A stretch of DNA of 64,000 bases from Candidatus Hydrogenedentota bacterium (GTDB lineage: Bacteria; Hydrogenedentota; Hydrogenedentia; Hydrogenedentales; SLHB01): positions 32,001-96,000 of the forward strand of contig CAVUWV010000001.1 of assembly GCA_963745075.1 (NCBI GenBank), in the 5' to 3' direction. Under the pieces are notes generated by a model, which saw only the letters and a list, made by a program, of their open reading frames with translations, made no database searches and was not told the DNA's origin. Below, piece by piece: positions 506-30,967 of the stretch. The position numbers and the translations under genes were made by a program. Numbering within the stretch: position 1 is the stretch's first letter; each line of letters opens with the position of its first letter.

Positions 506-559
506 ATTAGGCCAGATTTCCGTAAATGCAGGACAAAGCCTTAGTAAAGGTTTGGCAAA
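506..559 (-). promoter_or_regulatory. 11-bp-phased direct-repeat box plus -10-like hexamer (instance 1)
   Basis: On +: cgtaaa 521, gacaaa 532, agtaaa 543, ggcaaa 554; CCTAAT on - strand 9 bp downstream of the last unit. Confidence 0.75.
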
Positions 560-636
560 CTTTTGGGTTACGCGTGATATCTCCGCGGTTTAGGCACGTC
601 TCGGCGATCCACCGGTAGTACTGACGCGCCATGGGT

Positions 637-741
637 TATGAAATCCCGATCGCTCCCAACAACCAGTACAAGATGAGAAAGATGATGATGGTGCCGAAAA
701 GTCCGCCGCCCCATTTCCAGGCGCCGGCACCTGCGATCCCT
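637..741 (-). pseudogene. 5'-truncated copy of the small membrane protein at 3066..3188
   Basis: Encodes GIAGAGAWKWGGGLFGTIIIFLILYWLLGAIGIS*; similarity to 3066..3188 stops at about 740 and the paralog's start is absent. Confidence 0.65.
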
Positions 742-1170
742 TTGACTGTTCCGGCTTCAAAGTTCGGCCCTTTGCAAGCTCCCCCCGTTCTTTTTTGAGA
801 ATCTCATCATATTGCCACTGAGATTGTATATTGACCATGGTTCAGCATTAGGCGCGGTTCGCGCTCAAGATGGTTGATTCGTCTGCATAGTTGGGGTCTC
901 CATCGCGTGGTACGACGTGATGGAGACCCCAGACCAGTGTGCCGTCTTGAGTCGGCACGCACGTCATTCGTCTCTGTTAGTTGCCGGTGCGGAACAGGAC
1001 TTCGACTCGCCCGTCGCGCCTGAGATTCGCGTCGCCAAATGCGCCAATTTAGATCTTGTCGTCCGGCATTCCGGCCTTGGCCAGACTGTATCGGACGGTA
1101 TTGACACGAAGATCGCTCAGGTCTCGATCGCGCGGATTCATGTAGCCATCGATTCCGACATTCTCCGGCT

Positions 1171-2082
1171 CTATTTCGAATTCACCGTCGTGTAGTACCG
1201 GAGGCGCAGAAATCCCTGTGCGGGCCCCTGGCTGGGGGCAGACGCCAGGCACTCGACGGTATGGCTGCCGGGAACCTGGAACGCATGTTTCAGAACGGGC
1301 GCGGAAGAAACCACCACCCCATCGATGCACCAGACGTGTTTCTCATAGCCACGCGGCGGAGTGAACTCTGTTTCGGTGTTGATGGTGACTTCGGTCGGAA
1401 CTCCTGGCGCAGGCACGACCCTGGTGTATGCCGTAGCGGACGCCACGGCAGCAGTCTTGCCATTCTTTTTCTCGGTCTCGATGTACGTGACGACGTACTC
1501 GCCGGCCTCCCTGAAGGTGTACGTCAGTGCGTTCCGTTTCGGCTCCTCCGCCACGAAATTCCCGTTGATGAACCACGCACAAGTATGTCTGCGCTCGAGC
1601 TTGGTCGCCACGGTCAATTCGAGCGTCTGGCCCTCGTAATACACGGGTCGCAGTTCGATCTGGATCTCCCGCCGTGCGGTTGAGATTGCGATCCCCAATG
1701 TCTCCTCGATCTTCTTCTCGGATTGCCTCGCAAGTGCCGCCCTTTTCGCGACGATGTTGGGCATGTCGCGGCGAGGTATGAAGACCGGCACGATCACAGC
1801 TCCTCCGGCGGTTTCGACGGTTACATCGTAACTACCTGCATCGAGAATCTCGCTCGGCGCAAAGTCGTGGCCGCTGGGGAAAAACTGCCAACCGCGAATG
1901 TCCTTTACAGGGACCGGTACGCCGTCTTTCGTCAGCTTACTGGTTGCCGACTGTTGCGGCGACATGAAGATTGCGCTCGTGGAATTGGTCGTAATCGCTC
2001 CATTGCTCAGGGCAGCCGACAGGCACAAGACCAAGAGAACGCTCACGGTGCTGCCCCCGTGGAAGTAGCTCGCCGTTTTCAT
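1171..2082 (-). CDS. Secreted hypothetical protein with PKD/Ig-like beta-sandwich repeats
   Basis: Signal-like N-terminus; two W-x-I-N/D-G...Y/H-x-F-x-x-x-G-x-Y/H-x-V motifs; GAGGAG RBS. Confidence 0.65.
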   Translation of the reverse strand: MKTASYFHGGSTVSVLLVLCLSAALSNGAITTNSTSAIFMSPQQSATSKLTKDGVPVPVKDIRGWQFFPSGHDFAPSEILDAGSYDVTVETAGGAVIVPVFIPRRDMPNIVAKRAALARQSEKKIEETLGIAISTARREIQIELRPVYYEGQTLELTVATKLERRHTCAWFINGNFVAEEPKRNALTYTFREAGEYVVTYIETEKKNGKTAAVASATAYTRVVPAPGVPTEVTINTETEFTPPRGYEKHVWCIDGVVVSSAPVLKHAFQVPGSHTVECLASAPSQGPAQGFLRLRYYTTVNSK

Positions 2083-2184
2083 AATCAATTCTCCTCTTGT
2101 GATGGTCAAGTACCTCATTCTCGGTTCCGGGCCGACCAGCGGAGGGAAAGCACGACGGTTCGCGTGCCCTCCGGCCTTAAATCG

Positions 2185-2302
2185 CACGATTCACGGTCAG
2201 AACGATCGCGATAACAGGGCAAGTCAGTTCGGCCGCCCAGTAAGAAGTGAGCACCCCCTGCAGCTAGAGGATGATCAAAAGGAACAAGACCACTCCAAAC
2301 AT
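2185..2302 (-). pseudogene. Degenerate lmo0937-like small membrane protein
   Basis: MFGVVLFLLIIL*LQGVLTSY...VIAIVLTVNR resembles 10048..10197, with TAG where Trp is expected. Confidence 0.4.
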
Positions 2303-2457
2303 TTTTGCCTCTTTTGTCGCAGCCCCGCATCAATGTGAATCAACCACCGGCGGGCTACGACCGCGCAGCCTCTTCTGAACTGACCGCCGCCGCAAAGCGC
2401 AACTTGTCAGAGTGGCTTGGGTGATCGCACGGGGCGTGTGCGGCCTTACCTGCCGCG

Positions 2458-2664
2458 TCAGTCTTTCAAGATGAACGTAATTTTCATGAGCACCCGGTAC
2501 TCGGTGATCTCACCTTCGGAATCAACCAGTGCCTCGTGGCTTTGAATCCACGTGGATTTGACGTTCTTGAGCGTTTTATGCGCCCTTTCAATCCCTTCGG
2601 ATATTGCCGCATCGAAGCTCTCCGTAGAAGACGCCTTAATCTCAGTAATTCGTGCAATCGACAT
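2458..2664 (-). CDS. Dodecin family protein, copy 2
   Basis: MSIARITEIKASSTESFDAAISEGIERAHKTLKNVKSTWI...EYRVLMKITFILKD. Confidence 0.9.
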   Translation of the reverse strand: MSIARITEIKASSTESFDAAISEGIERAHKTLKNVKSTWIQSHEALVDSEGEITEYRVLMKITFILKD

Positions 2665-2823: not shown

Positions 2824-2876
2824 ACTAGGCCAAAACTACGTAAATCCTAGACAAAAACTCGTAAAGTTTTGGCAAA
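2824..2876 (-). promoter_or_regulatory. 11-bp-phased box (instance 2), upstream of dodecin 2
   Basis: On +: cgtaaa 2839, gacaaa 2850, cgtaaa 2860 (one 10-bp step), ggcaaa 2871; -10-like CCTAGT. Confidence 0.7.
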
Positions 2877-3065: not shown

Positions 3066-3188
3066 CTATGAAATCCCGATCGCTCCCAACAACCAGTACA
3101 AGATGAGAAAGACGATGATGGTGCCGAAAAGCCCGCCGCCCCATTTCCAGGCGCCGGCGCCAGCGAGCCCTGTGCGAAGAAGACCCAT
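3066..3188 (-). CDS. Small membrane protein (40 aa)
   Basis: MGLLRTGLAGAGAWKWGGGLFGTIIVFLILYWLLGAIGIS; AAGGAG RBS; partial duplicate at 637..741. Confidence 0.75.
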   Translation of the reverse strand: MGLLRTGLAGAGAWKWGGGLFGTIIVFLILYWLLGAIGIS

Positions 3189-3431
3189 GGTAGTAGCTCC
3201 TTTTCGTGTTTGATTCACGTCCCGGATCAACAGTCTATTTTCAACCATCACGCGCCCGGCCATGAGCTGCGTATGGCGAGTATTCTGGAAGAGACTTCCC
3301 TTCATTCGTGCACGCATCGAGGGGCAAGCAAGAAGCGCGTAACCGTCGTGGGACACCTCCTCCATCAAGGGGCTGCGCGTTGGCGGGAACCTTTCGGACG
3401 TCGCCTGGCAGCCACCGTTAAGCTTTGTATC

Positions 3432-3485
3432 ATTAGGCCAGAACTACGTAAATGCAGGTCAAAGAATTCGTAAAGTTTCGGCAAA
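3432..3485 (-). promoter_or_regulatory. 11-bp-phased box (instance 3)
   Basis: On +: cgtaaa 3447, gtcaaa 3458, cgtaaa 3469, ggcaaa 3480; -10-like CCTAAT. Confidence 0.75.
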
Positions 3486-3584: not shown

Positions 3585-5483
3585 TCACGCGGACGCGGAT
3601 ATGGGTTGTGGTTGTGCGGCGTTCTTCGCCTCCTCGTACGCCAGGATTGGCAGCCAGTCGGTCAACTGCTTGCGCGTTTCCAGCAAGGTAGTCGCCATCA
3701 GGTCCGCCCCTACCTCTTGAAGTTGTTCCCGATTCACGTCCACGTTGTCCTTGAGACCCCAGCGTCCCACGATAATCTTGAGATCCGGGTGCCGTGTCTT
3801 AAGCCGTTTGCACAGGTAGCGCGTGTGGGCCAGTCCACCCGGCGGCAACGCGCCGATGCAGATGAGCGCAGACTTCGCCTCGGTTACATGCGCGACGAGT
3901 TCTGCGGTCAATGTCTCCAATACCGTCACCTCCACTTCCCATTCGTCCGGGTTGAGGAGTTGACGCAACATATCGAGCGCCAGCTTATCCGCGTCGTCAC
4001 GAGCCGGACACGCGAGAATGCGAACCTTGGAGGGTAGTGCTTGGGCCCCTTCGACCGACCGTCCTTTTGTCGCCGCCAACACCGCGGCCGACCGACGCTC
4101 GCCCAAATCTTCCAGCACTTCGTGCGTCGCCTGGATGATGAATTTTTCGTCGGATTCCGTGAGCAAGTCCCGCTCTCGATCCCGCTTTGTGTAGACCAGC
4201 GCCGGCACCAGCAGTTCATCGTAGACCTGTTCGGGAGGAGAAGCTTTGGCGTGTGCTAAGACTAACTGTGCCGCCTCATCCTGGTCTCGCGCCAAAAGCC
4301 GCTGGTAGTAACTCACATCCGGGTCCAGCGCCGGTACATCGCCAAGAAGCACGGCAAAGAACTCTAACTCGGGGACGTGCTTCCCGAGGACCACGAGGCA
4401 GACCGTCAGAGGGCCCGACAGAACCAGGCCGATGGGTCCCCACAGAAAAGTCCAGAACGCGGCGGCGATCAGCATGGCCACCACGGAGACGCCGATGCTG
4501 CGACCGTACAGCCACGGCTCCACGGCGTTGTTCCAAACGAGTTCCAGGACCAGGAAGAGTCCGACCACCGCGAGCGGCAGCCACCAACCGGGGAACAGGG
4601 CCAGGCTGAGGGCAATTGGAAGCAGCGCCGCGAGGGGCGCCCCGACGTAGGGAACGTAGCGAAGGACCGCGGCGAGAAAACCCCAGAGCAGAACGTAGTC
4701 GACGCCAATGAAGTACAAGGCCAGGCCCCAAGTCAGGCCGTACGTTCCGTTCACGGCGAGCTGCGTGAGCAGGTAGCGGCTGATGCGCTCCCCCGCGTCG
4801 TCTATGGCCTTGGTCGTCGCAGTCATGCGCCCATTTCCCAATAAGCGGATCAGACGATTACGCAGGGCCTCGCGTTCCAGGAGCATGAACACGACCAGCA
4901 CTAGCGCCAGGGCCAAACCGCCGAGCGACGCCACCACAGAGTTGAACATGGCCGGTAACCACGAAAGCCACGCTGGGATTTCCGGCTGAGCTATCGCGGC
5001 AGGAGCCAGGCGTTCCGGAGGAACCTCTACGGCAACCGGCTTCGTCGCCTCCCCTTCCGGGTTCGCCGACGGTTTCTCCCACTCCCCGGTAATGTCCTGG
5101 GACAATTTGCCAAGGCGTTCCATGTCATCGCCATGGCCCATCCGTCGCAGGTCCTTGACCTTATCCCGGATGTTTTCAGTGTAAGTGGGTAGTTCATGGG
5201 CCAAGCTCGCGAGTTCGACCTTGACCAGCCATACAACGCCCCCTAGAGCCAGGGAGGCGAGCAGGACGACTACGACAACCGAAAGTCTTCGTCCCAAGTG
5301 CCAACGCTGTAGGGCCGTGACAAGCGGGGCAAGCAGAAAAGCCAGGAACAAGGCCAAGGCAACCGGAATGAGCACCGTCTGCGCCCAATACAAGCCGCCT
5401 ATCACGACGACCCCGACGACGGTGCCTGCCAGCACGGTCAGGGTAGCCTGACGAGCGGGAGCGACGAACAATTTCGCCATCAA
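3585..5483 (-). CDS. AI-2E family transporter with C-terminal soluble (B12-binding-like Rossmann) extension
   Basis: Multi-TM; motifs LIPVALALFLAFLL, RISRYL, LRYVPYVG, NNAVEPWLYG, GPIGLVLSGPLTVCLVV. Confidence 0.9.
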   Translation of the reverse strand: MMAKLFVAPARQATLTVLAGTVVGVVVIGGLYWAQTVLIPVALALFLAFLLAPLVTALQRWHLGRRLSVVVVVLLASLALGGVVWLVKVELASLAHELPTYTENIRDKVKDLRRMGHGDDMERLGKLSQDITGEWEKPSANPEGEATKPVAVEVPPERLAPAAIAQPEIPAWLSWLPAMFNSVVASLGGLALALVLVVFMLLEREALRNRLIRLLGNGRMTATTKAIDDAGERISRYLLTQLAVNGTYGLTWGLALYFIGVDYVLLWGFLAAVLRYVPYVGAPLAALLPIALSLALFPGWWLPLAVVGLFLVLELVWNNAVEPWLYGRSIGVSVVAMLIAAAFWTFLWGPIGLVLSGPLTVCLVVLGKHVPELEFFAVLLGDVPALDPDVSYYQRLLARDQDEAAQLVLAHAKASPPEQVYDELLVPALVYTKRDRERDLLTESDEKFIIQATHEVLEDLGERRSAAVLAATKGRSVEGAQALPSKVRILACPARDDADKLALDMLRQLLNPDEWEVEVTVLETLTAELVAHVTEAKSALICIGALPPGGLAHTRYLCKRLKTRHPDLKIIVGRWGLKDNVDVNREQLQEVGADLMATTLLETRKQLTDWLPILAYEEAKNAAQPQPISASA

Positions 5484-12872: not shown

Positions 12873-13019
12873 TTACTTCTGGGCGCCCTCGGCCGCGTTT
12901 TCAATGCTCTTGCCGCCTTCTTGAATGTCTTTTCCCGCACCCCGGAAGGTGTTGCATCCGAGCGCACCGGCGCTCATGAGCGTGCCAACCACCAATGCAA
13001 TAATTAGTCTCTTAAACAC
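12873..13019 (-). CDS. Entericidin EcnA/B family lipoprotein (not in ORF track)
   Basis: GTG start; FKRLIIALVVGTLMSAGALGCNTFRGAGKDIQEGGKSIENAAEGAQK. Confidence 0.88.
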   Translation of the reverse strand: MFKRLIIALVVGTLMSAGALGCNTFRGAGKDIQEGGKSIENAAEGAQK

Positions 13020-13129: not shown

Positions 13130-13582
13130 TTAGACGGACGTTCGGTTATGTGTCATCCAGTACTGACCGATGGTTTCCACAACGGTCTGAAAGTCAGAAA
13201 AACTCAGCGGCTTTATGATGTAGCTGTTTGCTCCGCAACGATAGCTCTCTTTGATGTCGCCGGCGGATTGCGAATCCGTGAATACGACCACAGGCGTGAC
13301 CGTAAGGGCGTCTTCCCGCTCGATGGACCGTATTTGGCCGAGTACCGAGAACCCGTCCGATTCCGGCAGCGCCAGGTCCAGCAGGATCAGTCTGGGAGGA
13401 TCTTCCCCGGCACGATCTGCCCATGCGCCGCGACTAAAGAGAAAGTCGAGCGCCTCTGGCCCGTCCCGAACGGACGTGACGACCACATCGGGTATGGACT
13501 CTTGCAGCGTAAGTACGATGGATGCCCGTTGGCTCTCATTATCTTCCACGACCAGGATGTCTACTGGATCACGATTCTTCAC
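13130..13582 (-). CDS. Single-domain response regulator, Rcp1-like
   Basis: ILVVEDN, LILLDLALP, PVVVFT, SYRCGANSYIIKP. Confidence 0.92.
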   Translation of the reverse strand: MKNRDPVDILVVEDNESQRASIVLTLQESIPDVVVTSVRDGPEALDFLFSRGAWADRAGEDPPRLILLDLALPESDGFSVLGQIRSIEREDALTVTPVVVFTDSQSAGDIKESYRCGANSYIIKPLSFSDFQTVVETIGQYWMTHNRTSV

Positions 13583-13643: not shown

Positions 13644-13697
13644 AGGGTACCTGTCCGTGATGAACTTCTGGCAAACCTGCGGCAAAGGTTTGGTAAT
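13644..13697 (-). promoter_or_regulatory. 11-bp-phased box (instance 4), upstream of the Rcp1-like receiver
   Basis: On +: gatgaa 13659, ggcaaa 13670, ggcaaa 13681, ggtaat 13692; TACCCT in the -10 position. Confidence 0.6.
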
Positions 13698-13895: not shown

Positions 13896-13949
13896 TTTAC
13901 CGAAACTTTACACAGTTTTTGCCTACGCTTTGCTCGGGGACGGTAATGT
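13896..13949 (+). promoter_or_regulatory. 11-bp-phased box (instance 5); no convincing downstream gene
   Basis: tttacc 13896, tttaca 13907, tttgcc 13918, tttgct 13929; TAATGT in the -10 position. Confidence 0.65.
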
Positions 13950-14673: not shown

Positions 14674-14702
14674 CAGGTTGCTCTTTGGCCACAATCTTGC
14701 CT

Positions 14703-18224: not shown

Positions 18225-18242
18225 AATGGCATTCTCCTGTGC

Positions 18243-19358: not shown

Positions 19359-19371
19359 ACCCTTCCATGAG

Positions 19372-20130: not shown

Positions 20131-20185
20131 TATCCTCTTGCCTATGCCTTCTGGCGATCTCGACTGGATCTTGCGGCCAAAGCCG

Positions 20186-20548
20186 CTAAGCTTCGTCCAG
20201 CCATTTCCGCGCCTCAGCGGCGTCGGCGTGATCGAAGTATCGGACCGACGCCGTCGTAAACGGCTTGCAAAACGTCGCCATGCCATGCTGCCACTTCGTT
20301 TCCCCGACCATCGCTATTCGCTCGATATCGGAGAAGTGTTTAGCGCCAAACTTCATGTCCTCCCACATCGCGCCGGCATCCCAACCGTGAAAGCCGGTCA
20401 TATCGAACAGCAGGAGCAGCTTTCCGTGTTGCTGGACGAGCCGGTCGAACTCGGGCACAAAGTGTTCGTAATCGGTCTTTGCCAATTTCCCGCTGACGTG
20501 AACAACGAGCAACTTCCCGCCGTCTTCTTCATTGAGTTGAATGGGCAT
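20186..20548 (-). CDS. SpoIIAA-like (STAS/SEC14) protein
   Basis: VSGKLAKTDY...FHGWDAGAMWEDMKF...RIAMVG...EARKWL. Confidence 0.88.
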   Translation of the reverse strand: MPIQLNEEDGGKLLVVHVSGKLAKTDYEHFVPEFDRLVQQHGKLLLLFDMTGFHGWDAGAMWEDMKFGAKHFSDIERIAMVGETKWQHGMATFCKPFTTASVRYFDHADAAEARKWLDEA

Positions 20549-20844
20549 TGCGATCTCCTGTTATCCGATTTGGGTTAGCACTAACCCGCCCCACGAATGC
20601 TTCGCGGATTCCGGTAAACTATTGCTCACTTCTTCTTTCCAGTGATTCCAATCACGGCGCGCTGCATGAGGCTTTCGAGAATCGCACATTCGACACGGTG
20701 AACCAGGACCTTATTCCGCCGTTTGCATTTATCGTAGTGGTAGCGGCTACCTTCTTCGGAGTGGCAGTGGGTCACGCGCTCAACTTTCATGCCATCTTCT
20801 AAGACGAGCTTGCGCTGCAACTCCTGACACGACGATCGATGGAA

Positions 20845-20890
20845 CGCGGGCCACGTGTCTGGTCGGCGTCGCCCAGACACGTGGCCCGCG
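20845..20890. terminator. Perfect 18-bp stem hairpin downstream of the OmpA gene
   Basis: CGCGGGCCACGTGTCTGG-N10-CCAGACACGTGGCCCGCG; no clear poly-U tail. Confidence 0.5.
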
Positions 20891-21005
20891 ATGCTTTCAC
20901 GATTAAACTCCCAATCCTGCTGATAAAACGGATGGCAACTTCGCGAGAAGGGGACGATCGATTATCATCCGGGTTGCCTTGACGCCGATCGGTTGCCCTT
21001 ATCGT

Positions 21006-22064
21006 TTAATCGCGAAAGCTGAGCCTGAACTCCGCGCGGCGATTCTGCTTGCGATTTGCTTCGCTGGTATTTGGCACCGCCGGACGGGTTTCCCCGTAGG
21101 CTTCGGTAGTAATACGGCTCCCATCGATGCCGTGTTCCACCAAGTAGGCCTTTACGGAATTGGCGCGGCGTTGGCTCAGGTCCATATTGTATTGAGAGGA
21201 ACCCAGGTCGCAGGTATGGCCCTCGATTGCGAGGCGCTCAAGCGTATGTGCCCTGATTTCTGCGACCAGCTGATCCAGTGCCGCTTTTCCTTGCGGCTTC
21301 AGCACGGACTTGTCAAAGTCGAAGAGGATCTCATTCGGCAGGACGATTCTTTGTTCTACGATCGTGGGGGCGGAGCCGGGGCCGAAGAAGATTTCCCGGA
21401 CCATTGCGTCCATTCCCTCGGAAGTATCCACTTCGGATGCCTGCCAGGCGTGTCCGCAACCCGTTACGCGTGTCATATCTCCCAGCAGCACCTTACCCGA
21501 ATCGCTGAATCCAACGTTTACGGTATAGATGCACAGCTCGCCGTCGTGTGCTTTCGCGATCGCTTCGCAGGCATTCAAGACTCGCTCATGGGGATGGGTC
21601 CTGCCGTCGGAGAACACCACTAGCGCGGATCTTCCGGTCTGCCCTTCAAACTCCGATCCGGTGACGAGTACACCCTGGTGCAACGGCGTTGTACCGCCGA
21701 GATACCGCAGGTGGTCCGCGCAATCCTTGAGGGCATCCAAGGTACCGCTGCGCAGGGGCACCTGCATCCAATCGGATTCTGACCCCCCGGCGAACGAACT
21801 GAACCCCATTTGATATGCCATGTCGGGCATAGCGCCCACGAATGCCTTCAGGAGATTCTTCTCCTGCTGGAAGACTCGATGTTCACGGGTCGACCCCGTC
21901 ACGTCGGCGAGGATCATGACTTGGTCCACTTTGAGCACCTCGCCCGGTCCAGGGGTTACCCGCGTCACCGGGAAGGATCGTGCGTGCATCGTCTGACAGC
22001 CGGTCAATGCACCGACGGCCAACACACAACACGCAATACACACTACGCGGCGGATGGTACGCAT
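21006..22064 (-). CDS. vWA + OmpA-C (peptidoglycan-binding) lipoprotein
   Basis: LTGC lipobox; DVTGS...TPL...FSDG (MIDAS-like); LFDFDKS, EGHTC, LSQRRA, NRRAE. Confidence 0.9.
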   Translation of the reverse strand: MRTIRRVVCIACCVLAVGALTGCQTMHARSFPVTRVTPGPGEVLKVDQVMILADVTGSTREHRVFQQEKNLLKAFVGAMPDMAYQMGFSSFAGGSESDWMQVPLRSGTLDALKDCADHLRYLGGTTPLHQGVLVTGSEFEGQTGRSALVVFSDGRTHPHERVLNACEAIAKAHDGELCIYTVNVGFSDSGKVLLGDMTRVTGCGHAWQASEVDTSEGMDAMVREIFFGPGSAPTIVEQRIVLPNEILFDFDKSVLKPQGKAALDQLVAEIRAHTLERLAIEGHTCDLGSSQYNMDLSQRRANSVKAYLVEHGIDGSRITTEAYGETRPAVPNTSEANRKQNRRAEFRLSFRD

Positions 22065-22131
22065 ACGTTCGCCTCCTGCGGTTTTCGAAGTTCTGAATTA
22101 ATGCAGCGTTGAAGTCAGATCAGTTCTCTAC

Positions 22132-22185
22132 ATTAGGTCAAACAAGGGCAAATTCCGGGTAAATACAAGGTAAAGAGTTGGTAAA
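22132..22185 (-). promoter_or_regulatory. 11-bp-phased box (instance 6), upstream of OmpA-vWA
   Basis: On +: ggcaaa 22147, ggtaaa 22158, 22169, 22180; CCTAAT. Confidence 0.8.
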
Positions 22186-22324
22186 CGGCGCAAGTAGAAT
22201 GGGTGCACGGTGGCTGCAATTGCCTCCCACTACCGCGATGACTACCAGCTTGCCGTGATAAACGTACGTAGCGCAGCGGGTGATGTCCGGAGCGAAGACC
22301 GCGTCACCGACGTGCTTGAAGGGG

Positions 22325-22378
22325 TTTACCGAAACTTTACCCCCGTTTTACCCCATGATTACCCACACATGGCTAAAT
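22325..22378 (+). promoter_or_regulatory. 11-bp-phased box (instance 7), upstream of radical SAM gene
   Basis: tttacc 22325, 22336, 22347, attacc 22358; CTAAAT. Confidence 0.8.
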
Positions 22379-22447
22379 CGAACTAATGAAATGCGTGTTG
22401 CGGCGAGCCTGCGACGAGAAGAGATCGGTACGGTTCGTCGGGCGTGA

Positions 22448-24586
22448 TTGAATGGACATCTCGAGATGCAAATCCGCGAAGACAATCCCCTGATGCACTT
22501 ACACGTAGTCTATGTCCGTCCGTCGCGATATGATGACGACGGTTACGTTGTGCGCTTTGCGCGTGGTGTCTTGCCGTCCAACACCCTATGTTGTCTCGAA
22601 AGCCTGACCGAACGCGTTGCGGAACGCGGCGACCTGGGTTCGGCTGTGAAGGTAACCGTGGACGTATTTGACGACACGGTGCAGAGAATCCCGATCCGAC
22701 GGATTGCGAAGCTGAACCGCCGGCCCGGGACGACGGTCGTCGTGGGTTTCGTGGGGGTTCAGAGCAACCAGTTCATGCGCGCCTCGGACCTCGCCCTGGA
22801 ATTGCGTGAGCAAGGCGTGCAGGTCATGATCGGCGGGTTCCACGTCAGCGGCGTTCTGACGTTGTTCGATAAGCCCTCCTATGAACTCCAACGGCTTCTG
22901 GATCACGGGGTGACACTGGTGAAGGGGGAAGTGGAAGCGCCGGGGATCATGGCGATGCTGCTGGGCGACGCCCTCCATGGCGCCATGAAACCCGTCTACA
23001 ACATCACCGAGTGGCCGGACTTGGCGAACGCACCCGTGCCGCACGCCAACCCGAAATTGCAGTGGCGCTACGTCGCGAAACGGATGGCGACAATTGACAC
23101 CAGCCGGGGGTGCCTGTTCAACTGCTCCTTTTGCACCATCATCAATGTCCAGGGCCGGAAAATGCGCTTTCGCTCCTCGGCGTTAGTGCTCAAAGCTATC
23201 GAAGAGAACTACGCCAATGGGATTCGCTTCTACTTCTTCACCGATGATAATTTCGCACGGAATCCCATGTGGAACGAGATTTTCGACGGCCTAATCGCGC
23301 TGCGGAATCGCGGCATTCGGGTCCAGTTCATGATGCAGACCGACACCCAGGCGCATCGCATCCCGAACTTCGTGGAGAAAGCGGCTGAGGCGGGATGCTA
23401 TCTCGCCTTCATCGGCATGGAGAGTGTGAACCCGGAAAACCTTAAGGCCGTCGGCAAACGGCAGAATCATACGCAGGAATATGTGCAGATGGTGGAAACC
23501 TGGCACCAGCACAAAATCCTGGTACACGTCGGTTACATCATTGGCCTGCCGTTCGACTCGCGGGAATCCGTTCGCAACGACATAGAATACCTGCGCAATC
23601 AGATCAAAGTGGATCTTGCGTCCTTGTTCATGCTGACGCCCTTGCCCGGGTCTCGCGACCATTGGCAGATGGTTCAGGACAACGTCCCCATTGACGCAGA
23701 CTACAATGACTACGACGGGCTTCACGAGACATTCCGGCACGGGCTCATGCCAAACGGTGCATGGCGCGCCGCGTACGATGAGGCCATGCACATGCTATAC
23801 AGCAAAGAGAACATCGTCGCCGCGTTGTTGCGCACGGACTCCGAGCACTATTGGGAAATCATGTGTTTTTCGATCTGGTATCGCCACGGTACGTTAGTTG
23901 GCATGCACCCGATGGCGACCGGGGTCTTTCGCCTCAAAGATCGACGTTCCCGACGCCCAATCTTCCCGCGCGAGAACGTACTTCAATACGGTTGGCGCCG
24001 GATGAAGGATTCATACCACGGCATGAGGACCTATCTCGGCCTCTTCTTCGAATTCCAGGAGATTTGGATGCTCACCCGCAAGCCCCACGATCCACGCTGG
24101 GCGACCCTCGCCGACTTGCGCGAAAAATGGACGGACGTGCAGCACCGTCTCGTGGAATACGACCTTCAGGGGCGGTATTCGGATGCCGCCCAGGAACTCA
24201 AGGCGATGCTCACTAGCACCGCCGACCGATTGCGCCAGCTAAGCCGCGCAGGAGGGCACATCAGTTTCTCCGTCCGGCGCAGGTTGCAGAAGAAGGCGGC
24301 GGAAGTGGAGAGCTATCTGAGAGCCTTCGACATGCAGGCACCGGGCTGGAGTGACGTCGCCGATGCCGAACGCTTTGTGAAAAAGACCGTGATCGCCGGT
24401 TACGAAGAGATTGCGATTCGCTACGTGGCCAAGCGCCGCCAATTCAATGCGTTTCGCCAGGACACACTCGAGCGAATCAAGGCCGGACAGCTTCTGAGCA
24501 TCAATGTATTCCGTATTCCCTATGCGATGGTGTGTGAAATCTTCTTCGCTTCGCGGTTCGCCATGCATTTCTTCGCCCACAATTGA
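22448..24586 (+). CDS. Cobalamin-binding-type radical SAM protein with long C-terminal extension
   Basis: RPSRYDDDGY, IGGFHVSG, SRGCLFNCSFC, FTDDNF, FIGMES, GYIIGLP, LTPLPGS. Confidence 0.9.
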   Translation: MNGHLEMQIREDNPLMHLHVVYVRPSRYDDDGYVVRFARGVLPSNTLCCLESLTERVAERGDLGSAVKVTVDVFDDTVQRIPIRRIAKLNRRPGTTVVVGFVGVQSNQFMRASDLALELREQGVQVMIGGFHVSGVLTLFDKPSYELQRLLDHGVTLVKGEVEAPGIMAMLLGDALHGAMKPVYNITEWPDLANAPVPHANPKLQWRYVAKRMATIDTSRGCLFNCSFCTIINVQGRKMRFRSSALVLKAIEENYANGIRFYFFTDDNFARNPMWNEIFDGLIALRNRGIRVQFMMQTDTQAHRIPNFVEKAAEAGCYLAFIGMESVNPENLKAVGKRQNHTQEYVQMVETWHQHKILVHVGYIIGLPFDSRESVRNDIEYLRNQIKVDLASLFMLTPLPGSRDHWQMVQDNVPIDADYNDYDGLHETFRHGLMPNGAWRAAYDEAMHMLYSKENIVAALLRTDSEHYWEIMCFSIWYRHGTLVGMHPMATGVFRLKDRRSRRPIFPRENVLQYGWRRMKDSYHGMRTYLGLFFEFQEIWMLTRKPHDPRWATLADLREKWTDVQHRLVEYDLQGRYSDAAQELKAMLTSTADRLRQLSRAGGHISFSVRRRLQKKAAEVESYLRAFDMQAPGWSDVADAERFVKKTVIAGYEEIAIRYVAKRRQFNAFRQDTLERIKAGQLLSINVFRIPYAMVCEIFFASRFAMHFFAHN

Positions 24587-24706
24587 CAACACGGTTCCCG
24601 CGATCGGTTCTTCCAGACTGAAAGACATGGCCCACAAAGGGGGCGGGGGCATCCTGGTGAATTTGGCAGCGGATCGTACACACCACGTGCGTAGCGTGAA
24701 GGGAAA

Positions 24707-25462
24707 TTACTCGGGCACATCCACGAACCGGTAGCCGGTCCCGCGCACAGTTTCCAGGAACCTGGGGTTGTCTGGATCGTCCTCGATCTTCTTCCGAATA
24801 TGCCCGATGTGCACGTCCACGACTTTTGGAATACTGTAGCTGCTGTCTTTCCACGCGAGTTCGAGAAGCTTGTCCCGCGTAAATACATGTTCGGGGCGTC
24901 GCGCAAGCGTGTAGAGCAGGTCGAACTCGACGCCGGTCAGTTCGATTGGGACATCGTCTTTCCACACGCGCCGTTCACCCGGGTCTAAACGCAAGCGGCG
25001 AAAACGCAAGACCTTGTCCCCCTCCACCTCGTCTTTGGATCTGCGCAGAATCGCCTCAATGCGGGCGCTGAGTTCTTGAAAATGAAACGGTTTGGGCACG
25101 TAATCGTCCGCCCCGATCGTGAGAGCCATAACTTTGACCGCCGAGATATTGGTGGAACTCAGCATCAGGACAGGTACATTGCCCGAATCGCGGATCTTGC
25201 GCAGCACTTCAATTCCGTCGATCGAACGTTCTCCCTTGGTCGTGGTATCCGGGAAATTGATGTCGAGCACCACGAGGTCCAGTTCCATGGATTTGGCGAG
25301 CGCCACCGCAGATCGCCCGTCGGCCGCGGTTGTCACCTCATACCCCTGATTCTCAAGATGCTTTTGGACATCCCGCAACAGTTTCCGGTCGTCATCCACA
25401 ACCAGAATCCTGCTCTTTGAAGTCTTTGTCAAAATTCCAGCATCCTTTTTGGTGACCGTCAA
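24707..25462 (-). CDS. OmpR/PhoB-family response regulator
   Basis: REC (VVDDD, LDINFP, GADDYVPKPF) plus winged helix (LTGVEFDLL, VDVHIGHIRKKIE, TVRGTGY). Confidence 0.95.
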   Translation of the reverse strand: MTVTKKDAGILTKTSKSRILVVDDDRKLLRDVQKHLENQGYEVTTAADGRSAVALAKSMELDLVVLDINFPDTTTKGERSIDGIEVLRKIRDSGNVPVLMLSSTNISAVKVMALTIGADDYVPKPFHFQELSARIEAILRRSKDEVEGDKVLRFRRLRLDPGERRVWKDDVPIELTGVEFDLLYTLARRPEHVFTRDKLLELAWKDSSYSIPKVVDVHIGHIRKKIEDDPDNPRFLETVRGTGYRFVDVPE

Positions 25463-25474
25463 ATACCCTGCCGA

Positions 25475-26623
25475 TCATTCACCCAGCGTAAAGTAAATTG
25501 TCGCGCCCTGATCGGTCTGGCCTTCGGCCCATATGCGGCCGGTGTGCCGTTCGATGATACGTTTAACGAGAGCCAGGCCAACTCCCGATCCCTCGAAATC
25601 ATGGGCTTTATGGAGCCGGTGAAACGCTAAAAACATCGATTCCGAGTGGATCATGTCAAACCCCACGCCGTTGTCACGGACAAAGTACACCGTTTCACCG
25701 TCGGGTTGGTTGAAACCGACATGGATCTCCGCCCTTTCGCGCGGCCGCGTAAACTTCAGGGCATTCGCCAGGACGTTCAAGAATACCTGTTTCAGAAGTG
25801 CACGATCCGCGCGGCATGGAGGCAACTCGTCAATCACGACGACCACTTCGCGGCCTTCCTGCTCGTCCTGCAACTCCTCCAGCGCCTCGTGTGCCAGTCG
25901 TCGCACGTCAACGCGCCGTTTTCTCATGGGCTCGCGGTTTACTCGCGAAAATGTGAGGAGATCCTCGATGAGCTTGCCCATTTCCCGGGTGCTATTCAAG
26001 ATCATGTGAGTCTTTTCCACGGCTCCGTCTGGAAGTTGGGCACCGTGTTCCTGAAGCAGCAGGTGCGCAATCTTGTTCGTCAACCGCAGAGGAGAGCGCA
26101 GGTCATGCGAAACGGAATGCGTGAACGATTCAAGCTCGAAATTGATTCGCTCAAGTTCGGCTCCGTGCCGCTGGAGTACCTCGTTCAACTCCTGGATTCT
26201 TCGCTCCGCCTCCTTTTCGCGTGTGATCTCTCGGAGTTCCACGAGGATCACGTTGGTCTGGTCTTCCCCCATGGTTATACGCCGGGCGCTGAGAGACAAA
26301 ACTTTTCGCGTACTTGGCGGGACCGCGCATACGATTTCGACGTCTTTCGCGTTGCCTTCCCGGGCCACGACCGCCTCCAGGACTGCCCGCAACCGCGGTT
26401 GACCCTTCTCTCCGGCGATAAGTTCCTGGACCGACTTCCCCGCCAAGTGTCCCGGGACGATCCCCAATGCTTCGAAGAAGGCTGGGTTCGCCGCTATTGC
26501 CCGGAGCGTTTCGTCCAGAACGAGGACCGGTTCGGCTAGTGCGTTCAGGATGGATTCGGCGATCTTCATGGGTTCTACCAGCGTCCTCGGATGCTGCCCC
26601 CCCAACGGCACTCCCATACTCAT
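25475..26623 (-). CDS. Cytoplasmic PAS sensor histidine kinase (Cph1-like HK core)
   Basis: PAS; SVSHDLRSPL; QVFLNVLANALKFT; DNGVGF; GSGVGLA; no TM segments. Confidence 0.92.
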   Translation of the reverse strand: MSMGVPLGGQHPRTLVEPMKIAESILNALAEPVLVLDETLRAIAANPAFFEALGIVPGHLAGKSVQELIAGEKGQPRLRAVLEAVVAREGNAKDVEIVCAVPPSTRKVLSLSARRITMGEDQTNVILVELREITREKEAERRIQELNEVLQRHGAELERINFELESFTHSVSHDLRSPLRLTNKIAHLLLQEHGAQLPDGAVEKTHMILNSTREMGKLIEDLLTFSRVNREPMRKRRVDVRRLAHEALEELQDEQEGREVVVVIDELPPCRADRALLKQVFLNVLANALKFTRPRERAEIHVGFNQPDGETVYFVRDNGVGFDMIHSESMFLAFHRLHKAHDFEGSGVGLALVKRIIERHTGRIWAEGQTDQGATIYFTLGE

Positions 26624-26746
26624 TTCCTCTCACTACGTTGTATCACAGTATACATGAATTAGTGCGAAAACGGAACAATCAGGCAATTATCTAGTTGGGC
26701 AATTTTCCGCAACCATCGCGGGAAACCGTTGAGCAGGTGGGTAAGG

Positions 26747-26800
26747 TTTACCGAAGTTTTGCCAGTACTTTGCCGGGAGATTACCCAATTCTGGCCTAAT
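26747..26800 (+). promoter_or_regulatory. 11-bp-phased box (instance 8), between the divergent HK and rubrerythrin genes
   Basis: tttacc 26747, tttgcc 26758, tttgcc 26769, attacc 26780; CCTAAT 26795. Confidence 0.82.
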
Positions 26801-26917
26801 ACAGGCGGTGCAACACGCAGGGCAGGCCGGCGCACCGGCCAAATTCTCAGTCTTTCTATGACTTTGGGTTGGCCGGTATCCGGGAATCAACCGAGTCGCC
26901 CGATAAGAGGAACAACG

Positions 26918-27355
26918 ATGAATCCGCAGACGCAAGATAACTTGTTGCAAGCCATGCGCGGCGAGGCATTCGCCTTCGTGAAGTACGAGCTGTTCGCCGA
27001 TCAGGCTCGTCAGAATGGACGGGAGGAACTCGCGGCGCTGTTCGAAAATACGGCGCAGGTAGAGCGCCTGGAGCACTTCGCCGAACTCGCCGAACTCGCC
27101 GGGTTGGTGGGCAACGACTACGACAACCTGTGTAACGCCGTCCACGATGAATCGTACGAAGCGGAGAGTATGTACCGTGAGTTTGCCGCGCAGGCGGCCG
27201 CCCCTGGCGACAATCACGCGGCCGCCCGGTTTGCCGAAATAGGCCGGGATGAGATGCAGCACCGCGACGCTTTCAAGGCGGCCCTGCAAGAGCTCGAGGC
27301 GGGCAGGCAGACCAACGTCGACATGGTTACTGCACCGGAGCCTCATCATGTGTGA
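26918..27355 (+). CDS. Rubrerythrin / ferritin-like protein lacking the rubredoxin domain
   Basis: TQDNLLQAMRGEAFA..KY..FA..A, ERLEH, ESYE...Y, DEMQH. Confidence 0.88.
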   Translation: MNPQTQDNLLQAMRGEAFAFVKYELFADQARQNGREELAALFENTAQVERLEHFAELAELAGLVGNDYDNLCNAVHDESYEAESMYREFAAQAAAPGDNHAAARFAEIGRDEMQHRDAFKAALQELEAGRQTNVDMVTAPEPHHV

Positions 27356-27886
27356 CTTACGTGGTCAGATAGACTTTACCAGCGCCACGGGGCGCCGTTT
27401 TCGGCAGTGTATTGCCGGCCCTGGGGTTATGCCTCCTAAGGAAGGCGGTTATTCGCCGCCTTCCTATCTCCGGCAAGGACCGCGCGGTTTTTTTGCGCGG
27501 TCCTGAGAGGCCTCAGGATGACAGATTATCCAAAGCCCTCCCTTCCCCAAGCTCCCTGCGCGGTTGTCCGTCAACCCCGCCGACCGCGCAGGGACACTCT
27601 TCATGGCATTCGCGGGTCTGAACGAAGGCAATCATGGCTTTTAGTATTCAGGTAGGCCATACCAACGGCGGCGTCGGCACGAACCGCATATCCACCGTCG
27701 ACCGTATCGTCAAGAATATTCTCAACCCGAATCCGCCTCACGGCACCGACCTTGGTGAAGAGCTGACTGTGGGGGCGGCCATCCAGAATCTCAAGCGATG
27801 GTGCGACGGCTTCTAGAACTCTGGCGACGATGATACCGCAGAGCGCGGTACAATCGTTGAACTCCTGAAAGAGAGGGAGACTATCC

Positions 27887-29032
27887 GTGGACACGTCAAC
27901 TCTGACCGAAGTGGCTGGACCCCGCATCGAGGAGCTTTCCCTACAACGGATTCTGGCCTACGCGCTTGAGAACGGGGCTTCCGATATTCACCTCAAGCTA
28001 GGGAGGCCGCCTGCCGTTCGCGTCGACGGTGCGTTGCGATTCACGCATATAGCGGAACTCACGGATGACGACATGTTGCGAATCCTGGATGAGCTCATGA
28101 GCCCGTCGCAAAAGCAAAGCTTTCTTGAGACGGGCGATGCGGACCTGGCGATCAGTTTTCCCGATTTGGGACGGTTTCGCGCAAACTGCTATCGGCAACG
28201 GGGCGCCATGGCCATTGTGCTTCGTCACGTTCAGTCGACGATTCCAGATTTTAAGTCGCTGCATCTGCCCGAGAAGGCAATGGAACGAATCGCATTACTC
28301 CCCCGCGGCCTGGTACTCGTCACAGGCACGACAAGCAGCGGAAAATCGACTACGTTGGCGGCGCTCATTGACCGCATCAACGCGTCACGTCACAGCCACA
28401 TCGTGACGCTTGAGGATCCCATCGAGTATTTGCACACCGATAAGAAATGTAGTGTGAGCCAGCGTGAAGTTTCCATAGATACCAAGGACTTCAAGACGGG
28501 GTTGCGAGCCATCATGCGGGAAGACCCCAACGTGATCCTGATTGGCGAAATGCGTGATGTGGAGACGTTTTATACATGCCTTGGTGCTGCGGAGACCGGT
28601 CACCTCGTGTTCAGTACACTCCATACGACGAACGTCACGATGACGATCGATCGTATTCTGGACATGTTTCCCGCGGACCAGCACGGTCAGATCAGGTCGC
28701 AACTCGCGCTCCAACTTCGCGCAGTGATTTCCCTGCGGCTCCTACCGGCTGCCGACGGAACCGGCCGCGTTCCTGCCGTTGAGGTTATGTTCAACAACCC
28801 GGGTATTGCGTCGCTCATCCGTGATGACGAGATCGAACGGATACCGAATGCCATCGCGGACGGCTCCGAGGACGGCATGCAAACGTTCAACATGGCGCTG
28901 GTCGACTTGGTCAAGCAGAAGATTGTTACGCAGGCGGCCGCTGAATGGGCCTCGGACAACCCGGATGCGCTCAAGATGAATCTTCAAGGTATTTTCGGAA
29001 GCCGGGACCGCGGCGGGATCTCCAAAAAATAG
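27887..29032 (+). CDS. PilT/PilU-family type IV pilus ATPase
   Basis: ASDIHL, RFRAN, VTGTTSSGKSTT, TLEDPIE, REDPNVILIGEMRD, AAETGHLVFSTLH. Confidence 0.92.
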   Translation: MDTSTLTEVAGPRIEELSLQRILAYALENGASDIHLKLGRPPAVRVDGALRFTHIAELTDDDMLRILDELMSPSQKQSFLETGDADLAISFPDLGRFRANCYRQRGAMAIVLRHVQSTIPDFKSLHLPEKAMERIALLPRGLVLVTGTTSSGKSTTLAALIDRINASRHSHIVTLEDPIEYLHTDKKCSVSQREVSIDTKDFKTGLRAIMREDPNVILIGEMRDVETFYTCLGAAETGHLVFSTLHTTNVTMTIDRILDMFPADQHGQIRSQLALQLRAVISLRLLPAADGTGRVPAVEVMFNNPGIASLIRDDEIERIPNAIADGSEDGMQTFNMALVDLVKQKIVTQAAAEWASDNPDALKMNLQGIFGSRDRGGISKK

Positions 29033-29145
29033 AGACAACCCAAGCGTGTGTGCTCTTCGATGGCTCGTTGAATTCCTTCCATCGCAATTGTCGACCGTGC
29101 CGCGGGCATTCCAGCATAGTTGCCGTTTCGCAGAAGGTGAGGTCG

Positions 29146-29199
29146 TTTACCAAAGCTTTGCCAATCCTTTGTCTCAGTTTCGTGTCGATGCGCGACAAT
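29146..29199 (+). promoter_or_regulatory. 11-bp-phased box (instance 9), upstream of DUF3309
   Basis: tttacc 29146, tttgcc 29157, tttgtc 29168, ttcgtg 29179; GACAAT. Confidence 0.7.
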
Positions 29200-29290
29200 A
29201 TGGGTAACGGAATGGGCTCGGCCGGGCGCGGTTGCCAAAAGACGACCGCGAACGGCCGGGCCGGCTGTCAACGAACTAAAGGAGCCCATT

Positions 29291-29455
29291 ATGGGTACGA
29301 TTCTGCTGGTTATTCTTGTTTTGATGATCTTTGGCTTTTCGCCCAGATGGGGCTATAGCCGGAATTGGGGCTACGGTCCCAGCGGCTTCGTCGGACTGGC
29401 TGCGGTTGTCGTGTTGGTGCTTTTGTTTATGGGACACCTGCCCCGCGGTTTCTGA
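29291..29455 (+). CDS. DUF3309 family small membrane protein (not in ORF track)
   Basis: MGTILLVILVLMIFGFSPRWGYSRNWGYGPSGFVGLAAVVVLVLLFMGHLPRGF; AAAGGAG RBS. Confidence 0.9.
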   Translation: MGTILLVILVLMIFGFSPRWGYSRNWGYGPSGFVGLAAVVVLVLLFMGHLPRGF

Positions 29456-29649
29456 TGCATCGTGTATCTTGCCCGACCCAGGTGGCCCGGCTTGCCGTTG
29501 ATTGAAAGGACCCGCCGGCCGGAAACGCGTGAGTGGGAGGTGTCGAATTACATTAATGCCATTAGACGGTTTCCGTCGGGCATCGGGCGTTGTTCGTCCC
29601 GGCCGGCACAGGCTGACTAGAGGAGCTTGGCCGGCGCGAGGTTCAGGCT

Positions 29650-30620
29650 ATGCAATCGAATTTGACAAATATGCGTGTTCTCACGACGCGCCACCACGTA
29701 TTGGGTTTGCTTGGGATTGCTGTTGTTTGCGCTATACCTTTTACGGCCCGTGGCGGAAATACCAAACTCGCCAACGGTGCTGGCGACATCGCCGGTGTAT
29801 CGGTGGCCAGTACTAATGATGCCGCCAAGGACAGTCACGGCCCTACCGTAAAGTTGAGTTATGGCAATGATGAATCCCGACAGAATCCTATTTCCTCCTT
29901 TATGTATTTTGTCCCGCTGATCTCCTTGAATCTTGTGGATAGGCAAACCAGTGCCAACAATGATGAGGAGATAGGTATTGTCTCGTATGAACGGAAGATA
30001 GACGCAAAATCCTTCTTTGTGGCCTGTGAATTCGAAATATCGGGAGAAGGTTTTCATAAGAGCTCATTTGACCCGGCGGGGGTAATAGCAACACGCACCG
30101 CCAATCTGAAAAGAAATGAGTCGCTGGTACGGGTACTGGACTATATCAAATTCGAGGGAGAAGGATTCGGCCGTATCGAAGTAGAAGGAACGATAAACGA
30201 TTCCGCGGAGACCGTTACCGGAGTGAACCTCCGGTTCAATGCGCGCGGGGGAAGAGTCCTGTGACCATTGGCCTATATGACATCAAGCCGCGGGACGGAC
30301 AATACCAGTACGAGAACCGATCGAATGAGGTGGTCGCCCGGGTGAATACGCTCGCATTCAAGAAAACCGCGGAGACCCCCAAGATGGAGATAAGTGTGGC
30401 GTCAATCGCCAGGGCAGTAGCGCCGGATGGTTACTTCGCCCGCATCAAAGGGACACTAGCGACTCTGCTTATGAAGCCGCCGAAAATTGACGCGCTCGGC
30501 AATGAAACCATGCTCAGCTTTGGATATGCCATACTCAAGCAAGAACCCGAGTTCACGTTCCCGACCGCGAAAAATCTCAAGGAAGACAGAACGGTTGCCG
30601 CTTTGGCGCCTCAGCCATGA
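29650..30620 (+). pseudogene. Secreted hypothetical protein split by a frameshift in a G run near 30250
   Basis: Adding one G joins NARGG to KSPVTIGLYD (ORFs 29650..30264 and 30261..30620). Confidence 0.65.
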
Positions 30621-30913
30621 GCTGTTGAGCACTGCTGAGCCCGTGAAGCGCTTGACAGCATATTTCGGTATTGCGCTCCGGACGCTTTTTCCACGTAAGC
30701 CGCGCGTGTTGTTTGAGCGGGCCAATACGATAGCTGATTTTAATAGCCTTCCCTTCCCCAAGTCCTTGAGCGGTTGCCCCCTCAACCGCTCAAGGACGCT
30801 CCTTTTCTGTGGACCTGCAATCGGTTGTGGCGCGATATTGATCAAACGTATCCGTTCCGGAGTTTGCTGATTGGTCGGACACGTCTTTGTCTGCAGGCAC
30901 GCAGCGGAGAATG

Positions 30914-30967
30914 TTTACCAAAGCTTTACCAATTCTTTATCTGCGTTTCGTGCGCCAAAGGCACAAT
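30914..30967 (+). promoter_or_regulatory. 11-bp-phased box (instance 10)
   Basis: tttacc 30914, tttacc 30925, tttatc 30936, ttcgtg 30947; CACAAT. Confidence 0.72.

Follow-up and report, generated by a model that had tools for sequence, protein, structure and literature searches.

A 64,000-nucleotide stretch of the genome of a Candidatus Hydrogenedentota bacterium (assembly GCA_963745075.1, contig CAVUWV010000001.1, positions 32,001 to 96,000; hereafter the window) contains ten intergenic arrays of TTTRCC-like hexamers, repeated with an 11-bp period and followed at a fixed distance by a -10-like hexamer. Two further arrays lie to the left of the window, and all twelve belong to a single island of 40 kb. 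A comparison of sequences within and between genomes leads us to conclude that the twelve arrays are probably activator-dependent promoters, bound by the phosphorylated form of an OmpR/PhoB-family response regulator that is encoded in the same island (window 24707-25462). An earlier reading of the window, hereafter the original prediction, had taken the arrays for the operator/promoter of an uncharacterised regulon and for an OmpR/PhoB-type operator that replaces the -35 element. The first proposal is supported by the comparative evidence, and the second by the 11-nt direct-repeat geometry, the absence of a -35 element and the co-occurrence of arrays with orthologues of the regulator. The regulon, located in an uncultured phylum, is a new one of a well-known kind, and not a new mechanism.

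Results

Arrays of four hexamers with a constant geometry

The ten sites were read by coordinate from the window, which corresponds to C1:32001-96000 of a 6.8-Mb, 36-contig assembly; positions without a contig name are those of the window. Each site carries four units of the type TTT(A/G)C(C/G/T), the starts of which are 11 bp apart, so that the hexamers at 11-bp phase reported initially were found at every site. Steps are of exactly 11 bp in nine of the ten sites, the single 10-bp step being located between units 2 and 3 of the second array. Nine bp after the last unit stands a hexamer that always ends in T (10/10 sites), and the list of these hexamers is exactly the one given in the original prediction.

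Array 1 (506..559, minus strand) consists of the units TTTGCC/TTTACT/TTTGTC/TTTACG, followed after 9 bp by CCTAAT. Also on the minus strand are array 2 (2824..2876, with the 10-bp step; CCTAGT), array 3 (3432..3485; CCTAAT), array 4 (13644..13697; last unit TTCATC, -10 hexamer TACCCT) and array 6 (22132..22185; CCTAAT). On the plus strand are array 5 (13896..13949; TAATGT), divergent from array 4, array 7 (22325..22378; CTAAAT), array 8 (26747..26800; CCTAAT), divergent from the kinase-regulator operon described below, array 9 (29146..29199; last unit TTCGTG, -10 hexamer GACAAT) and array 10 (30914..30967; last unit TTCGTG, -10 hexamer CACAAT). The arrays are designated below by the start and strand of their first hexamer, namely 559-, 2876-, 3485-, 13697-, 13896+, 22185-, 22325+, 26747+, 29146+ and 30914+. 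A degenerate last unit, TTCATC or TTCGTG, was confirmed at three sites (13697-, 29146+ and 30914+), and no array is present right of 31 kb in the window, as had been noticed. The two additional arrays, C1:23997- and C1:24058+, form a divergent pair 8 kb to the left, which brings the total to 12. Four units at 11-bp steps are present in 11 of the 12 arrays, a PHO-box-type operator being defined by at least two tandem 11-nt direct repeats.

It had been stated that the spacers between hexamers differ from site to site, and this holds for most pairs of arrays, the identity of which is near random. It does not hold for 559-/2876-/3485-, which share 0.45-0.70 of their spacer positions, nor for 29146+/30914+ (0.60); the mean spacer identity is 0.36, versus about 0.26 expected. 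The shared spacer sequence indicates that these two groups are paralogous promoters, and the number of independent promoters in the genome is therefore nearer nine than twelve. A GC-rich inverted repeat, alike in all three promoters, is found about 8 nt after the -10 hexamer of 559-, 2876- and 3485- (for the first, window about 477-498, minus strand). Located as it is at the predicted transcript start of the three paralogous promoters, it could form a 5' stem-loop for stability or regulation.

Core promoter elements

With the -10 hexamer at positions -12 to -7, the four units cover roughly -60 to -22. The 9-bp distance between the last unit and the -10-like hexamer is found in 12/12 promoters, as is expected of a PHO-box-type operator, which takes the place of the -35 element and keeps a constant distance to the -10. 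The best match to a -35 element 16-18 bp from the -10 hexamer scores only 2-3 of 6 positions in the 12 promoters, none of them being -35-like. The -10-like hexamers are weak, with 3-4 of 6 positions matching TATAAT, and a TG is present at -15/-14 in eight of the 12 promoters. A scan of window 13001-33000 for the sigma-70 consensus failed to pick up any of the seven arrays beginning in that stretch. A sigma-54 reading of the TGGCC that precedes the -10 hexamer was rejected by eye, since there is no GC 10 bp further on.

The arrays overlap the region contacted by polymerase, and a regulator covering -60 to -22 might block it, in which case they would be repression operators. Such a role has a precedent in the OmpR family, RpaB being a repressor or an activator depending on the position of its site, according to PMC6525291. 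A repressed promoter, however, needs a good core, and here a -35 element is missing in 12/12 cases and the -10 hexamer is poor. Moreover, the fixed 9 bp between last unit and -10 is a requirement of activators that replace the -35 contact. Repression is, for these reasons, very unlikely, and the arrays are treated below as activator-dependent promoters.

Confinement of the arrays to one island

A hexamer matrix was derived from the 40 units of the ten sites, summed over four units at 11 bp, and used to scan the whole 6.8-Mb assembly. There were 17 raw matches above 20 bits at the 11-bp step, all on C1 between 23986 and 62914, and arrays above 24 bits were found only in C1:23997-62914. When steps of 10-12 bp were allowed, 12 arrays were detected inside C1:20000-66000, and a single four-unit match above 20 bits outside. 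Four-unit matches above 20 bits numbered 0, 3 and 0 in three simulated Markov-2 genomes and scored 22.7 at most, to be compared with 26-42 for the real arrays. Comparing the motif in intergenic DNA of the window with that in the rest of the genome had been put forward as a check of the original prediction, and its outcome is that the arrays are essentially island-confined and exceed what is found in simulated genomes.

The period itself was controlled by searching for three units totalling more than 20 bits at all steps from 6 to 16 bp. The 11-bp step produced 13 matches, 11 of them in the island; each of the other steps (6-10 and 12-16 bp) produced 1-7 matches, of which 0-1 fell in the island. 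Lone strong hexamers were scarcely enriched in the island (96 versus 74 expected). It is the phased array, and not the hexamer word, that is special.

The regulator, its kinase and a single-domain receiver

The protein predicted to bind the arrays is encoded at 24707..25462 on the minus strand. It combines a receiver and a winged-helix Trans_reg_C domain (PF00072, 2.5e-25; PF00486, 1.2e-24), the combination by which the OmpR/PhoB family is recognised, and gives full-length matches to the structures of MtrA, PrrA, RegX3 and KdpE. It scores 175.6 bits against the PhoB model TIGR02154, below the equivalog cut-off of 296.2, and is only the fifth of six TIGR02154 matches in its own genome (E <= 1e-40), none of which is over the cut-off. 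It is likewise under the cut-offs of the RpaB model NF045944 (186.5 versus 330 bits) and of the MtrA model NF040689 (193.3 versus 300 bits). A DNA-binding domain was recognised in none of the other island proteins.

Its predicted partner is a cytoplasmic PAS histidine kinase of 382 amino acids (25475..26623, minus strand), in which no transmembrane stretch was seen by eye. The kinase core is closest to solved bacteriophytochrome-type kinases and HK853, and the solved-structure matches contained no cofactor clue for the PAS domain. Both genes stand in the middle of the island; a radical SAM gene converges on them, and array 26747+ points away from them. A third protein of this system is a single-domain response regulator of 150 amino acids (13130..13582, minus strand), similar to the receivers associated with phytochromes (Rcp1, RcpA and RcpB), with an intact acidic pocket and with both the phospho-acceptor Asp and the conserved Lys still in place.

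Alignment of the regulators with at least 60% identity to the local one revealed a shared PK(V/T/A)VDVH(I/V)(G/S)HIRKK at the expected position of the recognition helix. The regulator and all of these relatives also have in common an insertion of eight residues (about 72-79), just behind the loop of the phospho-acceptor Asp. Chloroflexota relatives at about 50% identity read ERVVDVH(I/V)GR(L/I)RKK at the same place and are without the insertion, and their loci are array-free. These differences agree with a different DNA specificity of the Chloroflexota proteins, and are no proof of it.

Conservation of arrays beside the regulator gene

Thirty-seven loci around relatives of the regulator were inspected, on contigs taken from one genome per species. 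The closest relatives (69-80% identity) are on contigs assigned to Candidatus Hydrogenedentota, apart from two labelled Nitrospirales or Nitrospiraceae, one of which belongs to G020; G019 and G020 are of the same family as the window genome. Arrays were present at 5/5 loci with a regulator of at least 69% identity, with 15 sites in 62.9 kb. At the 32 loci with a regulator of at most 60% identity, only two weak matches (22.0 and 23.3 bits) were found in 486 kb. One of the latter loci (L032, with a 60% identical regulator, from an unclassified bacterial metagenome-assembled genome) has no TTTRCC array. It does contain three TACCCT units at 11-bp steps (L032:12950-12978), 1.6 kb past its receiver gene, possibly a variant box.

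The survey was extended to 135 Hydrogenedentota genomes, an orthologue being defined by E <= 1e-80 and an array by the exact pattern TTTRC-N6-TTTRC-N6-TTTR. Orthologues of the regulator were found in 26 of the 135 genomes, which represent five families and 21 of the 66 genera, and in none of the five congeners searched (72-99% complete). The 26 genomes contained 132 matches to the pattern, 23 of them having at least one; the 109 other genomes contained 77 matches, with at least one in 41. The reversed pattern, used as a control, gave 51 matches over all 135 genomes. Per genome, the pattern is about seven times commoner where an orthologue is present.

Contigs long enough to show the neighbourhood place the matches next to the regulator gene in six genomes (G014 C8, G019 C8, G106 C30, G115 C130, G094 C12 and G092 C3). 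All six matches of G106 are on C30, at most 15 kb from the regulator gene; all three of G094 are on C12, and the seven arrays of G014 are grouped at C8:58-77 kb. A search for the pattern in related genomes was among the checks proposed at the outset, and it finds the arrays conserved, co-occurring with orthologues of the regulator and clustered beside its gene. The kinase gene is adjacent to that of the regulator in 9/9 other genome groups, and the single-domain receiver was found in 8/9. The remaining cargo of the island varies between genomes.

The -10 element could be examined independently of the search. Among 27 arrays of other genomes, retrieved with the hexamer matrix alone, at least 60% of sites show GG (offsets 46-47), A (49) and T (53). 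These positions are outside the search matrix and nevertheless form a consensus, so that the fixed -10 is conserved. When the promoter of the receiver gene was aligned for seven loci, hexamers and -10 were seen to be kept, and the flanks diverged.

These results bear on a rival explanation, by which the arrays would have no regulatory meaning and would be either a chance pattern or copies of a repeat that is mobile or has been duplicated. The shared spacers of 559-/2876-/3485- and 29146+/30914+ are indeed those of paralogous copies. However, most pairs have near-random spacers, simulated genomes yield only 0-3 matches below 23 bits, and orthologous promoters of other genera keep the hexamers and the -10 over diverged flanks. 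In addition, the arrays are all intergenic and point at genes, save 13896+, for which there is no supported open reading frame. Already contradicted by the simulations, the step control and the -10 and footprint results from other genomes, this explanation has a negligible probability.

A second rival accepts the arrays as operators and has them bound by another winged-helix or OmpR-family regulator encoded elsewhere, the local one merely travelling with the island. The genome does hold many OmpR-family paralogues (six matches to the PhoB model at E <= 1e-40, and 89 candidates at first look), and G065 and G121 carry arrays without a detected orthologue. Against it, arrays are within a few kb of an orthologue wherever contigs allow it to be seen, they are absent at the 32 loci of more distant relatives, and no other protein of the island was recognised as having a DNA-binding domain. 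We therefore judge binding by a regulator from elsewhere to be improbable, and binding by the phosphorylated island regulator remains the preferred reading.

Several observations nevertheless weigh against this preferred reading. Three of the 26 genomes with an orthologue are devoid of an exact match (G006, G123 and G127; 80-91% complete). Conversely, many typical arrays occur where no orthologue was detected, with eight matches in G065, seven in G121, four in G066 and three in G005; these four genomes are fragmented, so that their regulator gene may be missing from the assembly or may have diverged further. Related genomes are also non-independent samples. Within the genome, the matrix was trained on the ten sites of the original prediction, so that the scores of these sites are circular; the results free of circularity are the absence of arrays elsewhere in the genome, the untrained arrays C1:23997- and C1:24058+, and the arrays of other genomes. 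The kinase-regulator operon has no array on its own strand, 26747+ starting 124 bp upstream of the kinase start and in the opposite direction, and autoregulation is therefore not evident. Finally, C replaces A at the second position of six of the 12 -10 hexamers, which makes the exact register of the -10 uncertain.

Genes behind the arrays

The original prediction had nine of the ten sites pointing into a downstream gene. This is borne out, the first open reading frame being backed by Pfam or by conservation in other genomes for all but 13896+. Downstream of this array there is no supported open reading frame, and tblastx against the other loci detected no conserved one; blastn yielded only the short element at 14633-14683 described below.

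Array 1 is followed by an 81-amino-acid and a dodecin-like open reading frame and, further left, by genes for a hybrid PAS kinase, a response regulator-HD protein, a response regulator-cyclase and a patatin. Behind array 2 come a dodecin gene (2458-2721) and probably a gene for a PKD-domain protein (1171-2187), and behind array 3 a 100-amino-acid open reading frame (3066-3368). Array 4 heads the single-domain receiver gene (13130..13582, minus strand), then genes for WXXGXW and DUF5670 proteins. The long unit behind array 6 starts with an OmpA/VWA gene (21006-22064) and probably includes HAD, GH130, H+-ATPase and PPK2 genes, down to 14703. Array 7 precedes a B12-type radical SAM gene (22448-24586), and array 8 a gene for a rubrerythrin-like protein (26858-27355) and possibly a PilT gene (27887-29032). 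Array 9 is followed by a DUF3309 gene (29291-29455) and a 204-amino-acid open reading frame, and array 10 by open reading frames of 92 (31214-31492) and 115 amino acids and possibly by a CBS protein gene (32327-32773). A GlsB/YeaQ-type protein is also among those encoded behind the twelve promoters. A 15-pair, terminator-like hairpin with a T-rich tail (30762-30797, plus strand) stands about 120 nt before array 30914+ and probably ends the DUF3309 transcription unit.

Regulon content was compared by clustering the first downstream open reading frames of 88 arrays, collected in 17 genomes. The gene most often found first is that of the single-domain receiver (13/17 genomes), followed by DUF3309 (9/17); array 4, which heads the receiver gene, is the most conserved promoter of the regulon. 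The B12 radical SAM gene comes first in four of 17 genomes, and second, after DUF3309, in G014 and G019. CsbD-like, glycine-zipper, SPFH/Band 7 and WXXGXW proteins and a PAS-GAF hybrid kinase are other recurrent products of first genes, and GlsB, dodecin and rubrerythrin-like proteins are further targets across genomes. At the loci of G014 (L015) and G019 (L017), DUF3309 and a B12 radical SAM gene of 710-765 codons form one unit behind one array; in the present genome, 5 kb separate the DUF3309 and B12 radical SAM genes, and each has an array to itself.

Within the long unit of array 6, window 14703-18224 (minus strand) encodes a proton-efflux P-type ATPase with a C-terminal DUF2934 tail, directly followed by PPK2. 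The former is assigned to type IIIA proton P-type ATPases (1060.8 bits, cut-off 615.5), and the latter to the ADP-polyphosphate phosphotransferase type of PPK2 (516.4 bits, cut-off 450). Their pairing suggests a polyphosphate-driven supply of ATP for the proton pump under stress. Among the genomes compared, this operon is found only in the present island, save for a partial ATPase match in G019.

The PHO-box geometry, together with the PPK2, HAD phosphatase-type hydrolase and GH130 phosphorylase genes among the targets and a PAS domain in the kinase as in PhoR, might suggest that the arrays control a phosphate-starvation (Pho) regulon and that the local pair is PhoR-PhoB. Yet no pst, phoU or alkaline phosphatase gene was found among the island genes scanned, where only PPK2 and the HAD hydrolase touch phosphate. 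The regulator falls well short of the PhoB cut-off (175.6 versus 296.2 bits for TIGR02154) and is outranked by four proteins of its own genome. For a core nutrient regulon, presence in only 26 of 135 genomes and in none of the five congeners searched would be unusual. The polyphosphate operon, besides, does not belong to the island in the other genomes compared, and the conserved targets are stress-type small proteins. A Pho regulon is thus very unlikely, and a stress-type regulon of the island regulator is retained.

Other features of the island

An AI-2E family transporter gene (3585-5483, minus strand) with a fused C-terminal B12-binding-like domain (25.4 bits, under the cut-off of 32.1) lies inside the island without an upstream array; a full-length relative, 56% identical, is present in the G039 locus. 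Just past the 3' end of PPK2, blastn identified an element of 37-54 nt (14633-14683) that is 89-92% identical in the G020 and G019 loci and is possibly a dispersed repeat. On its right side the island stops at an integrase-core (rve) open reading frame (33165-33842, minus strand). A gene for an extracytoplasmic function (ECF) sigma factor of the PF07638 type (4.7e-63; 34585-35154, plus strand) follows, past an insertion sequence remnant, and has no array.

The CBS-pair gene (32349-32769) has an 87% identical DNA match in the congener G003 (99% complete), in which neither an orthologue of the regulator nor a match to the pattern was found. The 8-kb left flank of the island has no match in the five congeners, and the 10-kb right flank only scattered ones, at 65-87% identity. 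The congeners are too diverged for the borders to be compared before and after, and we therefore make no claim of an island insertion. Rescanning 13 open reading frames of unassigned function against Pfam at E <= 1 gave nothing usable. Rfam at gathering thresholds gave no match in the window and locus L001, and ARAGORN no tRNA in the window.

Discussion

Comparison with known systems

PhoP core sites of B. subtilis consist of four TT(A/T/C)ACA-like repeats with a periodicity of about 11 bp, from about -60 to -20, and the PHO box of E. coli ends about 10 bp before the -10. The layout described here, with 11-nt tandem direct repeats in the -35 region, matches that of the PHO boxes of PhoB (E. 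coli) and PhoP (Streptomyces and B. subtilis). As described in PMC4415409, PHO boxes are made of 11-nt direct repeat units, with conserved bases followed by less conserved ones, on which effector domains bind head to tail, and two or more units fill the -35 region of activator-dependent promoters. The unit here is nevertheless TTTRCC, and not CTGTCAT or GTTCACC, and the regulator is below the PhoB cut-offs. Unlike the Pho regulon, the present one contains no phosphate uptake or scavenging genes among its targets, does not extend beyond one island and has a patchy distribution across the phylum.

RpaB, another member of the OmpR family, ranks second among the NCBIfam matches of the local regulator (186.5 bits), and its half-site is close to TTTACC. 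This half-site is (G/T)TTACA(T/A)(T/A), upstream sites activate, and the HLR1 element consists of two 8-nt repeats 2 nt apart, according to PMC6525291. From the same paper, HLR1 has a 10-bp period, two units and activating sites near -51, whereas the arrays have four units with an 11-bp period that extend to -22. MtrA of actinobacteria is the best match both in NCBIfam (193.3 bits) and among solved structures (2gwr, E 4.3e-43). The score is below the cut-off of 300 bits, however, and the neighbourhood, the partner (here a cytoplasmic PAS kinase) and the targets differ.

As to the targets, the resemblance is to the sigma-B, RpoS and EcfG regulons, with which the island shares CsbD-like, GlsB/YeaQ-type (Transgly_assoc), glycine-zipper, small membrane and ferritin-like proteins. 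These protein families are typical of general stress regulons. The control differs: it would be exerted by a two-component activator with tandem boxes instead of a dedicated sigma factor, and there is no sigma or anti-sigma gene in the island. Literature searches found nothing that ties TTTACC direct repeats to a response regulator, which is not meant as a claim that nothing has been published. Among papers on Hydrogenedentes and two-component systems, judged by their listing and the openings of their abstracts, none deals with this regulon, and the same reservation applies.

A model for the regulon

If PhoB and PhoP are a guide, each array would be occupied by four winged-helix domains (two dimers), arranged head to tail along the same face of the DNA. 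Of these, the promoter-proximal one would take the place of the -35 contact and recruit a sigma-70-type polymerase, and the neighbouring cytoplasmic PAS kinase would set the phosphorylation of the regulator in response to an intracellular cue. Once induced, the single-domain receiver might compete for the phosphate of the kinase, acting perhaps as a sink, and complete a negative feedback loop. Gene content points to a general-stress-like or dormancy-type programme as the output, the stress-type set being made of the small membrane proteins DUF3309, GlsB, CsbD (in relatives), glycine-zipper and DUF5670, plus dodecin and rubrerythrin-like proteins.

A broader proposal, which we put forward as no better than a tentative one, is that Hydrogenedentota mount their general stress response through a portable switch (PAS kinase, OmpR-type activator and activator-induced Rcp-like receiver) in place of a stress sigma factor. 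The switch, the four-box promoters and a variable stress cargo, which here comprises among others a proton pump and an enzyme that makes ATP from polyphosphate, might then move jointly as a self-contained island, gained and lost between genera.

With this regulon, a candidate phylum without a cultured model gains a fully specified system that is open to test. Its regulator, kinase and feedback receiver can be named, together with a 54-bp promoter design and about 90 natural variants of it from 17 genomes. Confinement to one island makes regulon membership readable from the sequence alone. Once its signal has been identified, the promoter design could be used as an off-the-shelf orthogonal inducible system, and the variable cargo shows which genes the present lineage treats as stress genes.

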